UHGV virus genome: UHGV-0110022
Source of the DNA: a virus
Length of the DNA: 48,769 nucleotides
Direction: 5' to 3' (one strand)
The number at the start of each line of letters is the position of its first letter. The stretch's first letter is position 1. The notes below the pieces were generated by a model. The model ran no database searches and was not told the origin of the DNA. It saw only the letters and a program-made list of their open reading frames with translations. A program made the translations under genes and the position numbers. Positions 39,065 to 48,769 of this stretch are shown here, piece by piece.

Positions 39065-39697
39065 TTATAAGTCCATCTCATTGATCACACGGCTAACGGC
39101 TTGCTTGTCTAAATCCAGATAGCGCCTGGTGTCAGTGATGTTGCTGTGATTAAGCACGGTCATAGCTAAAGCGATGTTGTTTGCTGAACGCTTGTAGATG
39201 GCATTCCCGCCAGCTTTGCGGAAGCTGTGAGCTGATACAGTGCCATGAATACCGATAGCTTTAGCGGCCTCTGCGATCTGCTTGCTCACTTCTTCGCGTC
39301 GTACAGGCGCTTGCTTGTTCATTGATCGGTTACGCTGGCTTCTGAACACATGCACATCATGCGGATACTCAGCACGGCGACGAGCAATCATCTGCACCAC
39401 TGGAGCAGGGAGAGTGAGGGCTTTACGCTTCCCTGTCTTCTGTTCTTCTATGTCAATCTCACCGTTGATCACTTCGTCGAAGCGTAACGCTACGGCATCC
39501 CCCACACGCAGTACAGCGGCTTGCATCATTAACGTAACGTCAGCTATCAGGCTCTTGTTATGAGCGTTTAGCCACTCCCTGATCGCTTTGGCTTGCTGTT
39601 CGTCTAACACTACTGCTCTGTTCAATTTACCCTCCCATAAAGACACACATCTAAACTCAACGAAACAAATAATATGATCAATTTCAGTAAGTTGCAA
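39065..39697 (-). CDS. small tyrosine recombinase (catalytic domain only, FimB/FimE-size)
   Basis: Catalytic residues in LRVGDAVALRFDEV (Arg), HSFRKAGG (His-x-x-Arg), TDTRRYL (Tyr); possible TTG start at 39625 after GGGAGGG RBS, giving 186 aa. Confidence 0.55.
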   Translation of the reverse strand: MQLTEIDHIICFVEFRCVSLWEGKLNRAVVLDEQQAKAIREWLNAHNKSLIADVTLMMQAAVLRVGDAVALRFDEVINGEIDIEEQKTGKRKALTLPAPVVQMIARRRAEYPHDVHVFRSQRNRSMNKQAPVRREEVSKQIAEAAKAIGIHGTVSAHSFRKAGGNAIYKRSANNIALAMTVLNHSNITDTRRYLDLDKQAVSRVINEMDL

Positions 39698-41647: not shown

Positions 41648-42388
41648 ATGACTGACATTATAAACAGTAAGGCTTTTAGTTTCACCAACACCGAAGACGC
41701 ATTTAACGAATGCACCAGGATCACCAATCTTAAAACAGGCGTAACAGAGTCCCTGTCTCCTGCTGATAAGCAGTTTTACGTCAGAATGCGCCATCGTTAT
41801 TATCGCTTTGCGATAGAGTTGGGCGGTACTTATTACGATGACATTGATCAACTTGGTGCAAGTATTGGTGTCAGCTCGGCTACGGCAACACGTATTGTTG
41901 CAAAGTTGAAGAAAATCGGACTGATCGCCAGTAATAAGCCAAAGCGCTCTAACCAATGGACTATAACGCCACTCACGCCGCAAAACTTCACCTTTGAACG
42001 TGATCGTAATGCGATGGAACGTGATTCCGCGCCGGAATGGGTAGATTGTCTGAAACATCCCGTGTTTGGCAAAGCTAAAGAAGACGTAGCGCCAGAGGAA
42101 GAAAAACAGCAGTCAGTGCCAGAAGAGGCCAAAGCAGATCCGAAGCCGGAGAAGCCAAAGAAAATGCCTACGAAGAAACCCGCCTCCATTCCAGCTAAAG
42201 ATATTAAGATAGAGCCAGTTAATTTAAACTTTCTTGAGGGTTATCGGGATGAATGGGAGAATCCTGAAAAGAATCTACCAGTTTCACAACATCCGAAAAT
42301 CAGATGGCTACTTATTAACGGATACCTGGACACAGAGAAGAATCCAAAACTTAAACCAATCTACGAGGAAATAGAACATTTATGCTGA
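41648..42388 (+). CDS. HTH-containing protein (246 aa), possible replication/regulatory protein
   Basis: Winged-helix-like segment IGVSSATATRIVAKLKKIGLI; Lys/Pro/Glu-rich linker. Confidence 0.45.
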   Translation: MTDIINSKAFSFTNTEDAFNECTRITNLKTGVTESLSPADKQFYVRMRHRYYRFAIELGGTYYDDIDQLGASIGVSSATATRIVAKLKKIGLIASNKPKRSNQWTITPLTPQNFTFERDRNAMERDSAPEWVDCLKHPVFGKAKEDVAPEEEKQQSVPEEAKADPKPEKPKKMPTKKPASIPAKDIKIEPVNLNFLEGYRDEWENPEKNLPVSQHPKIRWLLINGYLDTEKNPKLKPIYEEIEHLC

Positions 42389-42843
42389 AAACGGTTATAC
42401 CCAAACAATACAACGAACGTGATCTTAACATCATCCATCTTGCCAGTTTATTAAATCCAGAAGTTGAAAGAGGTGTTGCATTCGAACAAGCGCAAGAACT
42501 TGTAGATGTTTACGCTGAGCGAGGTGAATCAAGTTACGCTAATGCTCTTGTTACGCTATTCAATGCAGCGATGAAGCCACCGAAAGAGATAGAATGTAAA
42601 ATGACATCCCCACATCTTCACGATAAGAATCTGTCTCCTTCGGAACGTCTGGTATTAATGCACCTCGAATCACTGCCATCATTAACAAATGTGAAACAGG
42701 AGTCAATAGCGATAGTGTTGGGGATAAGTGTGGCAACTGTATCCAGTGCGATTCGCAAGCTCCGCCGCAATGATTATCTAACTACTACGTTAATCAAACC
42801 TGGTCGCGGTAAAGGATGCGACATTACACTTACGACTAAATAA
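42382..42843 (+). CDS. winged-helix transcriptional regulator-like protein (153 aa)
   Basis: HTH-like segment IAIVLGISVATVSSAIRKLRRNDYL. Confidence 0.4.
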   Translation: MLKTVIPKQYNERDLNIIHLASLLNPEVERGVAFEQAQELVDVYAERGESSYANALVTLFNAAMKPPKEIECKMTSPHLHDKNLSPSERLVLMHLESLPSLTNVKQESIAIVLGISVATVSSAIRKLRRNDYLTTTLIKPGRGKGCDITLTTK

Positions 42844-44916: not shown

Positions 44917-45948
44917 ATGAGTAAAATCGCAATTGGGCGTGAGATGGTCGATTTAGCGCCAATCTTCCAGGCTCTGCCGGAACGTAACTATCTTATGAAT
45001 GCCCTCGACCTATTCGACGGGGTAGGTGTTCAGAATCCGAAAGTGGTGGTGACACAGCTTCTGGATGATAACTACAGCCTGTTTAACACCCCGCAGAGCC
45101 GTTATTCATCAAACCACGACACTACCGCGCGTCAGAATGGCAAAGAATACCTTATCGAGATTCCTTGGTTTGCAAGGGAAGATGAGTTTAAACCTGTAGA
45201 CGTACAAGGCCGCAGAGTGCAGGGAACGGACTACGAGCAAACCGTTACCGACCTGTACACCGAATACACTGGCAAACATAAGATTGCTTATCTGCGTACC
45301 CGTGAGTCTTACCTGGCCCGTGCTCTGTTCAAAGGTGAAGTTTATACGCCTGCAACTGATGACCTACTGATCTCTTATGCTGAACTGTTCGGTGTGGTGC
45401 CAATGACAGCCAGCGTGAGCACAGCGACAGCGGCACAGGATTTTGATGCGATCTTAGACAAAGTTCAGGCTGCCGCAGGTGGATTGGCTGGACAGATTGA
45501 ACGAGTGATCGTATTCGCTAAACCTGCTGCATTTAGCCAGATTCGCTTCTCTGACAGTATGTCTAAGGCGTTCCAGTATGTAGCGCCATATGACGACCGT
45601 AACCTATTCTACCAGCGTCACGAGCTTCTCCCTGGTGTTAGTACGTTTAGCCTACCTGGTGCGCCTATCGACATTGTTAAAGTGACAGATCCGCTGATCC
45701 TTGCACAGATGCCAGATGATGCTGACATGGTGGCGGTTCCGGTGTTCAGTAAAGGCACAAATGCTTATCAGAACATCTACGGCGCTGCCTCTGGTAACTT
45801 TGCGCTGATCGATGCTGCACCTGCTGAATACTACTCTTGGGGCTACCTGAGCGAGCGCGGCGATGCTTACCACGTTATGCACGAAAACAGCGCATTACCA
45901 GTGAACCATGCGTTAGGTATGCAGGTGAAGATCACCATCACTGCTTAA
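44917..45948 (+). CDS. major capsid protein, E-like family (putative)
   Basis: 343 aa, lambda gpE-like size and composition; follows decoration-like gene. Confidence 0.5.
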   Translation: MSKIAIGREMVDLAPIFQALPERNYLMNALDLFDGVGVQNPKVVVTQLLDDNYSLFNTPQSRYSSNHDTTARQNGKEYLIEIPWFAREDEFKPVDVQGRRVQGTDYEQTVTDLYTEYTGKHKIAYLRTRESYLARALFKGEVYTPATDDLLISYAELFGVVPMTASVSTATAAQDFDAILDKVQAAAGGLAGQIERVIVFAKPAAFSQIRFSDSMSKAFQYVAPYDDRNLFYQRHELLPGVSTFSLPGAPIDIVKVTDPLILAQMPDDADMVAVPVFSKGTNAYQNIYGAASGNFALIDAAPAEYYSWGYLSERGDAYHVMHENSALPVNHALGMQVKITITA

Positions 45949-46067: not shown

Positions 46068-46265
46068 ATGCAAGTGATTGTAAAAAGCGCGGGGCTTCAC
46101 CTCGCCGTAAATGCTGAAACAGCAGAAGAGTTATTAAATCTGGCGGGAGTGTGTCGTGTGCTTGAAATAGATCACGGTCATCTACGTCAGTTATTACATC
46201 GTGGGCGTAGTGTATCAGATGCACTTAATTATCTGGTGAGTAAAAAAGGCGGTGGCGATGCTTGA
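46068..46265 (+). CDS. hypothetical protein (65 aa)
   Basis: GAGGAAA RBS. Confidence 0.35.
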   Translation: MQVIVKSAGLHLAVNAETAEELLNLAGVCRVLEIDHGHLRQLLHRGRSVSDALNYLVSKKGGGDA

Positions 46266-48102
46266 GATTAATACAAGTAAGATCGTCAACACCGTAACTT
46301 TCACCGTTGACAAAGGGAGTATTGCAGAGGCTAAGGCCGCAGCGGATAACCTTCAAAAGCACTTCCAGAAAATAGCCGATCCCAAGATTCGCTTCCAGGA
46401 TCTGAAGCAGCGCAGACAGAAAGCCCGTCAACAAGCCGATGATGCACGTTTTAATGATAAGCCTCGTGATACGAAGGAAATGAAAGCCCAACGTGCGGCG
46501 GAGAAGCAGAAAGCCAGGGATGAAAAGGCCAATCTGAAAGCGAAGCAGCAGCTACAGAAGCGCCAAGAGACAGCCGAGCTTAAACTTCGCCATGCAGGGC
46601 TACAAGTGTCAGGAATTAAAGGTAAATACGGGCTTGATCCTAAATCTCAGTATGAAGCGTTACGTTATATTCATCAGCAAAGCGAAGAGTTTGCGAAGGG
46701 GAATATTAGCTCTCAACGTATGAATGCGCTTATACGCGAGCGTGTAACCCTGTTACGCAGAGAAGCCGCACAACAAGCGAAAGTGACACAGGCACAGCGT
46801 ACCCAGTATGCCGCAGCAGCCACTAAGCTAAAGGCTCAGAAGGGCGGGAATGCTCCTATCGTCGGTGGTGGGGTATTAGGAAGCCTTGCGTTAACGGCTG
46901 GCTCCCTCGGAGTGGGGCAGCGAATTGTTGACAAAGGGAATGAAAATCTTGACTTGGTTAGAAAATCGGAACTTGTTAAGACTAATCCTAACGTAGTTAA
47001 AACGATGGTGGCATGGGGGCAGCAACACGGAGTTGATAGCGCCAATGTCGATAAAGTGACGGACAATTTCAAAGATGTACGTGAACGTATCGCTATGACC
47101 CTGAACGATAGCCAGTTTAAAAATGGCGAATGGAAAGGCGGCGATGGTGGTATCACTTCTATTATGAATAAGTTTGGATGGGGCAAAGAACAGATTAAAT
47201 CCTTCCAGGATCGTCCTGCTGATCTACTTCAAGCAGTTACCAATGAAGGGCAACGCCGTGGTATGTCACAGGCTCAGATTGGTACGCTTATAGAGAGTTT
47301 AGGTGATGACCTGATGCACTACACCGATATGTTCATGAACAACGGTGCAGAATATAACAAGACGCTGAAACAGCTTGTCGATAGTGGTCAAACTCTTAAC
47401 GAGGAGCAGATCAAGCAAACTCTTGCATATGGTGATCTGAGTGTAGCGATGGGTAATCTCATGAATGGCGTTGATAACAGCATGTTTACAGGCTTTATGA
47501 AAGGCTTTGCTGATGGTGGTGACGACCTGGTGAAGAACACCAAAGTGATAACAGAATCTGCTGGTATGCTCGGAGAGGGATTAGGCGACCTGGCTAAACA
47601 GGTGACGGGCTTTGTTGGAGAAATCTCCAGCGTAGTGTCTGATCTTAACAGTGCGCTTCGTCAGCGCTTCCCTGAATGGTTTAGCGATACTAAGAAACCT
47701 GCTGTTCAAAATCTTTATGATGGTGCTGTGGGTGGCTCTGCGAATGCTACGGCCGATTGGATTCAGGATAAAACGGGGTTTGATACCCGTTCAGTGGCTC
47801 CGGCTATCATGGATTGGTTGGGCGTTGGTAATCAGCAAGCAGGGACAGCGGCTAATCAATACAGCCTTTCAGGGGAAAATCTCCGTGCTTCGGCAATGTC
47901 GCTCAACAGCAGCAACGCGCCAGCGTACACGTTGAACCCGATATTCAACCTACAAGTGAATCCACAAGTGGGATTGACTCTGCAAAGTGATGTTTCTCGA
48001 TTGTCTGACTATATCGACTGGTCTGCAAAAGCGAGTGCGGATTCATTCACTCGTAGCCTTACGCTATCAGCCTTGAGCGGTCAGTCATCCACAGGGGGAT
48101 GA
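46258..48102 (+). CDS. large virion-associated protein, function unknown (tape-measure-like or scaffold-like composition)
   Basis: N-terminal Lys/Gln/Ala-rich coiled-coil region, Gly-rich central region; start ATG 46258 or GTG 46252. Confidence 0.4.
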   Translation: MLEINTSKIVNTVTFTVDKGSIAEAKAAADNLQKHFQKIADPKIRFQDLKQRRQKARQQADDARFNDKPRDTKEMKAQRAAEKQKARDEKANLKAKQQLQKRQETAELKLRHAGLQVSGIKGKYGLDPKSQYEALRYIHQQSEEFAKGNISSQRMNALIRERVTLLRREAAQQAKVTQAQRTQYAAAATKLKAQKGGNAPIVGGGVLGSLALTAGSLGVGQRIVDKGNENLDLVRKSELVKTNPNVVKTMVAWGQQHGVDSANVDKVTDNFKDVRERIAMTLNDSQFKNGEWKGGDGGITSIMNKFGWGKEQIKSFQDRPADLLQAVTNEGQRRGMSQAQIGTLIESLGDDLMHYTDMFMNNGAEYNKTLKQLVDSGQTLNEEQIKQTLAYGDLSVAMGNLMNGVDNSMFTGFMKGFADGGDDLVKNTKVITESAGMLGEGLGDLAKQVTGFVGEISSVVSDLNSALRQRFPEWFSDTKKPAVQNLYDGAVGGSANATADWIQDKTGFDTRSVAPAIMDWLGVGNQQAGTAANQYSLSGENLRASAMSLNSSNAPAYTLNPIFNLQVNPQVGLTLQSDVSRLSDYIDWSAKASADSFTRSLTLSALSGQSSTGG

Positions 48103-48253
48103 TTGTGATGTAAATCACATGGGAATACCACATATTGCGCTCGCTTTGTAAAGGATGTGTATATGTGGTGTTTTTCTTTGACGCCGCTTCGTTTGTCCCT
48201 TACCCTTAAAAGGGTAAGCAGTTCACTCTTTATCTCCAAGATGAGGTGTTTTT

Positions 48254-48382
48254 ATGGCTAAGAAAACAGTAGTTCGTTCTGCGATAACTGGTCAGTTTGT
48301 TAAGCCCATTGAAGCTAAACGACATCCTGATACTACGATAACTGAAACTATCAAAATCCCTACCAAGAAAGCTAAGAAATAA
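48254..48382 (+). CDS. small basic protein (42 aa), not in the ORF track
   Basis: GAGGTG RBS 5 nt before ATG; translation MAKKTVVRSAITGQFVKPIEAKRHPDTTITETIKIPTKKAKK. Confidence 0.3.
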   Translation: MAKKTVVRSAITGQFVKPIEAKRHPDTTITETIKIPTKKAKK

Positions 48383-48440
48383 AAATATCTCAAAGTGCCC
48401 ATAGCGGCGCTTATTCATTTGAATGTCTGGAGAGAATTAA

Positions 48441-48719
48441 ATGGCAAACAACTTGTTTGTAACCTATGACTTGATCAAAACCAAAGATTATGCTGCTGTG
48501 CATGATGCTATCAAGGCCTTGGGCAACTGGGCAAAAGTTACCGAGTCGAACTGGTACGTAAATTCGAATTATTCGGTTGAAGAGGCTGCCAGAAAAGTTC
48601 GGGCAGCGATGGATAGCGATGATAAGTTGATTGTTGTTGATGCTAAGAATAACTCTGCTTCCTGGTATAACCTTTTGCCAGCAGTTGAGAATCAAATTCA
48701 AAACGAATGGAATAAATGA
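48441..48719 (+). CDS. hypothetical protein (92 aa)
   Basis: ORF followed by hairpin GGGGGAT..ATCCCCCC. Confidence 0.4.
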   Translation: MANNLFVTYDLIKTKDYAAVHDAIKALGNWAKVTESNWYVNSNYSVEEAARKVRAAMDSDDKLIVVDAKNNSASWYNLLPAVENQIQNEWNK

Positions 48720-48769
48720 GTTATCGGGGGATGGATAATCCCCCCTTAATTACTGGACGTTGTAATTTA

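Follow-up and report, generated by a model that had tools for sequence, protein, structure and literature searches.

Near the right-hand end of UHGV-0110022, a viral stretch of 48,769 nucleotides analysed over its whole length (the window), a very short plus-strand frame encodes a strongly basic product, and the locus raises the question of whether so small a frame is a gene at all and, if it is, what its protein is likely to do. The preliminary description had put the frame forward as a possible real gene with a strong ribosome-binding site, and the elements it named were all confirmed in the sequence: GAGGTG at 48243-48248 is followed by five nucleotides (TTTTT, 48249-48253) and then by the ATG at 48254-48256, the frame 48254..48382 (+) closes with TAA at 48380-48382, and its 42-aa translation is the product quoted, MAKKTVVRSAITGQFVKPIEAKRHPDTTITETIKIPTKKAKK. 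The 4.7-kDa protein is basic, as had been stated (pI 10.5; 11 K+R versus 3 D+E), and ends in the C-terminal tail PTKKAKK. The label 'unlisted' holds for the list of open reading frames that was then at hand but not for RefSeq, where PGAP already calls the CDS a hypothetical protein. The existence of the ORF was therefore known from that deposit; what is new here is the breadth of its family, the distinction between single and tandem architectures, the absence of curated models and structural relatives for it, and the conserved place of the gene beside a site of swappable cargo. The gene and its flanking elements are arranged as follows.

48178..48206, plus strand: promoter-like site (TTGACG at 48178-48183, 17-nt spacer, TACCCT at 48201-48206), recognised by eye in the alignment
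48199..48218, no strand assigned: perfect palindrome CTTACCCTT-AA-AAGGGTAAG with 9-bp arms, overlapping the -10-like box
48243..48248, plus strand: Shine-Dalgarno sequence GAGGTG; GATGAGGTG is invariant in 7/7 aligned island copies
48254..48382, plus strand: 42-codon gene (stop included in the interval), with a RefSeq CDS, a family, dN/dS values and an AF2 model behind it
within 48254..48382, plus strand: conserved unit VVRSAITGQFVKPIEAKRHPDTTITETIK (residues 6-34), followed by a Lys-rich tail (residues 35-42)
48393..48412, plus strand: terminator-like GC hairpin beginning 10 nt past the stop, with a T-rich tail behind it; kept in the island family

Across the seven aligned island copies the small gene thus forms a compact cassette composed of a promoter-like site, a Shine-Dalgarno sequence, the ORF and the terminator-like hairpin. 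How much weight the ribosome-binding site can bear was gauged in the window itself, which contains 170 ATG ORFs of 30-60 aa; a frame of this size is consequently unremarkable by chance, and a 5-mer Shine-Dalgarno core at a suitable distance precedes 5 of the 170 (~3%). The site is unusual yet not decisive for the reality of the gene, and because it is suggestive rather than conclusive the case rests on comparative evidence.

By megablast the locus was present in 13 of 5,426 complete E. coli genomes. PGAP has annotated the CDS in E. coli AR_0128 (WP_255201295.1), where the DNA is 99.5% identical to the UHGV-0110022 locus, and in E. coli KL53 (WP_257394210.1), where the identity is about 86%. 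Conservation of the frame in homologous loci had been named beforehand as the check to be made, and it is found across several genera: frame, start codon and Shine-Dalgarno sequence are kept in E. coli, Citrobacter, Kosakonia, Serratia and two further island lineages. KL53-type loci tolerate a 1-nt indel directly upstream of the ATG; the ORF itself is free of indels. In a word-indexed search of 5.8 billion proteins we recovered nine clusters of 64-100% identity from E. coli, Enterobacter, Serratia and metagenomes, which share an unchanging core, VVRSAITG.F..E.K.HP.T..TE, and a C-terminal tail that varies in sequence but stays basic.

Over a 29-codon core, comparison of the UHGV-0110022 copy with that in locus L006 shows 16 synonymous against 11 nonsynonymous changes, and comparison with a copy from Nitrosospira (locus L011) shows 13 against 6, with dN/dS values of 0.07-0.08 in the sense frame in these two cases. 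Judged from the aligned codons, the frame 48254-48382 has been under purifying selection. The Serratia small gene (locus L003) shows the reverse of this pattern (1 synonymous and 6 nonsynonymous changes), which is consistent with relaxed constraint in a decayed island remnant. The view that there is no gene here, either because a chance ORF lies in DNA conserved for regulation or packaging or because the antisense ORF at 48230-48418 is the real gene, can draw on flanking non-coding DNA that among close relatives is as conserved as the ORF and on an antisense frame that is open in the enterobacterial copies, but with changes against distant copies falling mostly at synonymous positions of the sense frame, and with thousands of protein-level homologs in unrelated DNA contexts, it is effectively refuted by family size and substitution pattern together and retains next to no probability. 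The 62-aa antisense ORF was rejected on its substitution pattern, on its ends being interrupted in L006 and on the absence of any homologs found. Frame conservation, dN/dS and family size therefore all support the small ORF that had been proposed from its ribosome-binding site, and that 48254-48382 is a real protein-coding gene we regard as close to certain.

A 34-codon ORF beginning with GTG (48157-48261, plus strand) overlaps the start of the small gene. In the KL53-type loci (L002, L009 and L022) a 1-nt deletion brings the two ORFs into one frame, from which a 76-aa product could arise; the 42-aa form is still PGAP's call in those loci, and the GTG extension is not conserved elsewhere.

Beyond the close relatives, profile matching indicates that the small basic protein is a member of a large, widespread and so far unnamed family. 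A HMMER profile search of 1.84 billion cluster representatives (50% identity) returned 723 proteins at E<=1e-3 and 47 at E<=1e-10, and a second search of a large database with a broader alignment returned 2,847 clusters at 90% identity; the best profile matches reached E values of 1e-16 to 1e-25. The family spans Proteobacteria, Actinomycetota, Acidobacteriota, Elusimicrobiota and CPR bacteria, and its named sources include Enterobacterales, Nitrosospira, Deltaproteobacteria, Actinomycetota, Acidobacteriota, Elusimicrobiota and several CPR lineages. Its members share a conserved unit of ~26 residues, (R)SAxTG(R/Q/K)FV-x5-A-x2-(H/N)P-x-TT(V/I)-x-E; across 44 aligned members R8, G13 and P25 never vary and F15, T27 and T28 hardly do, and the UHGV-0110022 protein carries all six. 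Three architectures were seen. Single-unit proteins of about 40-60 aa bear a ~12-residue tail that is 43% K/R, and the UHGV-0110022 protein is of this type; tandem proteins of 61-85 aa carry two units and almost no tail (181 among the sampled members); and a few members are fusions to other domains. With medians of pI 10.9-11.9 and a net charge of +10 the family is strongly basic, although a few neutral or acidic members occur with a pI as low as 4.5, and Cys is nearly absent (mean 0.03-0.13 per protein). The 42-aa protein fits these bounds of size and composition, namely 40-85 aa, a high pI, no Cys and, in a single-unit member, a K/R tail.

All source names of family members read 'hypothetical protein' except for one evident misannotation. 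No model in Pfam, NCBIfam, PHROGs or PADLOC matches the 42-aa protein or 54 other members; a DUF4295 match in 1 of 44 members (E 3.5e-4) was attributed to the K-rich tail and set aside. A sequence-profile search revealed no related PDB sequence, just a 10-residue hairpin similarity to a designed beta-trefoil, and a full-text literature search did not find the motif strings of the family. No copy was present in 50,697 phage genomes by megablast or tblastn, a pattern-limited scan of viral contigs gave two copies only, and a plasmid search gave one marginal Dietzia match (E 0.5).

To consider what such a unit might look like, an AF2 model of the 42-aa protein was built on the family alignment and gave a mean pLDDT of 89.5; in it residues 2-9 form a strand, the chain turns tightly at T12-G13, F15 makes a bridge, residues 18-23 are helical and residues 28-35 again form a strand, ahead of a low-confidence tail. 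The model of a tandem member (pLDDT 83) contains the same elements twice. With high confidence, the unit is predicted to be a beta-beta-alpha(-beta) mini-module, consisting of a beta-hairpin, a short helix and a third strand, and this arrangement of hairpin, short helix and strand is seen in the models of both proteins. Against the PDB, the 42-aa model had no significant structural neighbour; those listed below significance were beta-beta-alpha finger segments of a nuclease and zinc-finger-like mini-domains.

We considered two groups of known modules as possible relatives. The first comprises beta-beta-alpha fingers, that is, the His-Me/beta-beta-alpha-metal nuclease core such as Sda1, and C2H2-type and other small zinc fingers; the family lacks the ligands of a zinc-finger or beta-beta-alpha-metal site, Cys being almost absent and the sole conserved His, H24, lying at the helix end. 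The second comprises the Arc/MetJ/CopG ribbon-helix-helix proteins and the swapped-hairpin binders AbrB/MazE/SpoVT, which, like the 42-aa protein, are very small and carried on mobile elements, and which likewise begin with a beta-strand or hairpin followed by a short helix and likely function as dimers. The family unit resembles the looped-hinge segment of AbrB/MazE, and TGQFVKPIEAKR of the 42-aa protein locally resembles LGRVVIPIELRR of AbrB. The relation was nevertheless rejected: hhalign probabilities were 0.35% and 0.14%, and in the Pfam scans PF04014 was matched neither by 44 members searched at E<=10 nor by another 10 searched at E<=1. The NCBIfam MazE model matched one fused member only (E 0.025), and no structural similarity to solved SpoVT/AbrB/MazE members was found.

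The immediate surroundings place the small gene at the right-hand accessory end of a ~12.4-kb capsid-encoding integrative island, which runs from ~36.4 kb to just past 48769 and in E. coli AR_0128 is inserted at tRNA-Thr next to proA. Its main genes are these.

39065-39697, minus strand: short integrase
41648-42388: RepO-like initiator
42382-42843: HTH_36 protein
44917-45948: lambda-E-type major capsid protein (PF03864, E 8.4e-15)
between the capsid and tape-measure-like genes: gene for a 65-aa protein
46252-48102: 616-aa tape-measure-like protein (phrog_16051, E 2.5e-99), named 'TolA' by PGAP
48441..48719, plus strand: 92-aa cargo gene (phrog_1090, function unknown)
downstream of the 92-aa gene, convergent: full-length integrase

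To our knowledge, this gene content resembles that of none of the P4, PICI, cfPICI or PLE satellites, and for this reason the island may be an undescribed type of capsid-encoding satellite; a literature search on such capsid-encoding satellites and on thrW returned nothing specific. The gene order and the distance of exactly 152 bp to the tape-measure-like gene recur in Citrobacter, Kosakonia and two further island lineages, in which the small protein is 79-83% identical.

Apart from one intervening gene, no more than about 370 bp separate the small gene from the convergent integrase. That intervening gene encodes the 92-aa protein, whose similarity to Cas2 (E 0.075) and to DUF3884 (E 0.011) is weak though it covers nearly the full length. 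Between island variants the 92-aa protein is 66% identical versus 98% for the 42-aa protein, and this disparity indicates that the two do not co-evolve. In Serratia (L003) an unrelated Cys-rich 156-aa gene has replaced the 92-aa gene, with the junction right at the ribosome-binding site. The 92-aa gene is swappable cargo and no conserved partner of the small gene, and the position looks like a cargo-swap hotspot beside the integrase. Flanked by chromosomal genes, the Serratia segment (L003, 7754-8650) is a decayed remnant of the island: of the tape-measure-like gene just the final ~35 codons persist, and after them come the spacer, the small gene and a downstream gene that differs from the island's. 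At ~48726-48745, between the 92-aa gene and the convergent integrase, there is a GC-rich hairpin (GGGGGAT-GGATA-ATCCCCC) that is probably a bidirectional terminator and is shorter in KL53-type islands.

P4-like satellites have accessory-gene hotspots next to their integrase, and the small gene is placed comparably, between structural or late genes and the integrase and directly upstream of the gene that is swapped. Unlike P4-like elements, however, the island has no recognisable P4 hallmark genes and its small gene is conserved rather than variable. The likeness to these hotspots also fails in that neither the small gene nor its neighbours match a defence family; PADLOC-DB returned nothing for the 42-aa protein or eight neighbouring proteins.

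Within the cassette, the designation of 48178-48206 as a promoter-like site follows from its conserved boxes, which in the seven-copy alignment read TTGAC(G/C/A) for the -35-like and TAnnCT for the -10-like element; the UHGV-0110022 copy itself scores below the threshold of a consensus scan. The palindrome at 48199-48218 was matched by 0 of 300 shuffles and folds at -10.5 kcal/mol (z -3.0), and could serve as an operator or as a 5' RNA hairpin. It is confined to the UHGV-0110022-type island, with one arm changed from CC to TT in KL53, and is absent from L024-type islands and from unrelated family loci. A palindromic operator for autoregulation throughout the family was rejected, since the palindrome is significant only in UHGV-0110022-type loci. 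The hairpin at 48393-48412 folds in 5 of 5 loci tested (z -1.4 to -3.7), with five core pairs kept and three one-sided C-G/U-G changes, and no double compensatory change. The 151-nt spacer that follows the tape-measure-like gene (48103-48253) is as conserved across genera as coding DNA, and signals that the island uses for regulation or packaging could lie in it. It contains inverted repeats at three places, GTGAT..ATCAC near 48106-48119, ACCACATAT..ATATGTGGT near 48128-48170, and the palindrome itself. Rfam contained no RNA family matching within 47800-48769.

The settings of distant family members are varied. The roughly 35 loci compared were drawn with a VRSAITG-type alignment and are biased towards VRSAITG-type members, and within this sample the distant members have no common neighbour and downstream genes that are mutually unrelated. 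Members were found beside an E1/E2/JAB cassette with an IS110 transposase (L035, 1340-3963), a KAP NTPase (L034, 372-2041), Eco57I and an Mrr-like nuclease (L028, 1-4481), and LlaJI/AAA_5/methylase genes with Tn7 remnants (L031, 3084-8204). In two deltaproteobacterial MAGs that represent one lineage (L018, 5200-6282; L019, 5201-6283), a single-unit member lies 95 bp upstream of a gene for NA37, a 37-kDa nucleoid-associated protein (PF04245, E 2.8e-70). These settings show that the family travels mostly on mobile or accessory DNA. That accessory genes turn up in defence islands or mobile elements is to be expected whatever they do. In two CPR MAGs (L017 and L020) the small gene sits between uvrA-like and ddl-like genes, as judged by sequence motifs, and the setting would apparently be an ordinary chromosomal one rather than a mobile element.

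Taking these findings together, we infer that a small dimeric nucleic-acid-binding protein is the most likely function of the gene product. Binding of nucleic acid is suggested by the charge, the K/R tail, the beta-beta-alpha-like module and the one NA37 neighbourhood, and as a mechanism we hold it tentatively, at somewhat less than an even chance. The homodimer is deduced from domain architecture only, since natural covalent tandems exist and drop the tail. In the mechanism we propose, the single-unit protein would pair as a homodimer that mimics the natural tandem forms and would bind nucleic acid, most likely DNA, through a conserved Arg/His/Ser/Thr face and the basic tail; expressed independently from its own cassette, it would act as a small architectural or regulatory protein carried by mobile elements next to accessory or defence cargo. 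The full account, of a selected gene with its own signals encoding a homodimeric nucleic-acid binder of mobile elements, is the best explanation we can offer, and we regard it as plausible while still giving it a little under half of our belief. Against the nucleic-acid reading stand the lack of a significant sequence or fold relation to any known DNA- or RNA-binding family, the weakness of basic charge alone as evidence when a few members are neutral or acidic, and the facts that the palindromes hinting at autoregulation are not a feature of the family and that the NA37 case is one lineage. Histone-like proteins such as mycobacterial HupB, at its C-terminus, and chlamydial Hc1 have Lys/Ala/Pro-rich basic tails, and like them the 42-aa protein joins a small folded domain to a Lys-rich tail that is predicted to be disordered; its folded part is unrelated to theirs, however, the tail is much shorter, and tandem members have none.

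The alternative that survives best, though we consider it unlikely, is that the small protein, carried by mobile elements, binds another protein, for example to inhibit or modulate a factor of the host or of a phage, such as the ribosome, RNA polymerase or a component of defence or anti-defence. Its recurrence in defence islands and mobile elements and its position at the accessory end of a satellite-like island would suit such a role, no recognisable DNA-binding fold was found, and R8, S9, T12, G13, H24, P25, T27, T28 and E31 could equally form a protein-recognition surface. Yet no conserved neighbour offers itself as a candidate partner, the extreme positive charge and K/R tail are more typical of binding to polyanions, and members are known too from CPR genomes that show no sign of a mobile element.

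Less probable again is that the ORF is mainly a translated leader, in which a ribosome at the stop codon would block the hairpin at 48393-48412 and so couple expression of the cargo to translation of the ORF. The hairpin and T-rich tail do lie directly past the stop and are kept in the island family, and the Serratia remnant has retained the cassette and the downstream ribosome-binding site despite its swapped cargo. The conservation of amino acids across phyla and in tandem forms, however, goes far beyond what a leader needs, and distant members have neither such a hairpin arrangement nor a conserved downstream gene. A leader mechanism could coexist with a function of the protein.

We give slightly less credence to a virion-associated or DNA-condensing protein of the island that would be expressed with the structural genes. 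Such a role would accord with a highly basic product whose gene directly follows the capsid-E and tape-measure-like genes, in their orientation and at a constant distance, but this gene is served by a promoter-like site of its own and set apart by the conserved 151-nt spacer, the phage genomes searched by tblastn contained no copy and the pattern-limited viral-contig scan just the two mentioned above, and most family members do not adjoin structural genes.

An excisionase (recombination directionality factor) paired with the adjacent tyrosine integrase seems marginally more improbable still. Small size, basic character and proximity to the convergent integrase would fit, as would the homolog in L006/L007 that lies about 1 kb from a short integrase, and one tandem member has weak excisionase/HTH_17 matches (E about 0.07-0.08). 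These HTH_17/TIGR01764 matches are nevertheless below cut-off and span the repeat junction of a single protein, whereas the 42-aa protein and 44 members show no HTH_17 or excisionase match even at E<=10; moreover, the predicted fold contains neither a winged helix nor a helix-turn-helix, and the linkage to an integrase that marks the island family is absent from most other contexts.

Finally, one half of a toxin-antitoxin-like pair with the downstream 92-aa gene, to which the short gene closely followed by a gene for 75-92 aa in several loci and the weak, Cas2/VapD-like signal of the 92-aa protein (the nearly full-length Cas2 match) had pointed, is very improbable, and a conserved partnership or type II pair was rejected, because the downstream genes are unrelated between loci, the two proteins change at different rates, the terminator-like hairpin separates both genes, and no PADLOC or toxin-antitoxin family matched.

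Returning to the nucleic-acid-binding homodimer, a broader and more speculative reading, which we think doubtful but worth stating, is that the ~26-residue unit may be an undescribed, self-sufficient nucleic-acid-binding mini-domain of beta-beta-alpha-beta form with no solved relative, acting as a homodimer or tandem, carried by mobile elements into most bacterial phyla, the CPR among them, and marking or controlling sites of accessory or defence cargo. Should the protein merely be another small basic protein of mobile genetic elements, the finding would be an ordinary one. The 42-mer is short enough for chemical synthesis, so that its binding, oligomeric state and structure could soon be determined. 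If the mini-domain reading is true, E. coli would offer in the small gene a tractable member of a new domain family that is among the smallest known, and with the family's help accessory hotspots of satellites and defence islands might be easier to delimit. Thousands of orphan small genes would likewise become easier to annotate if the family proved to be a DNA- or RNA-binding mini-domain of a new kind at mobile cargo sites.
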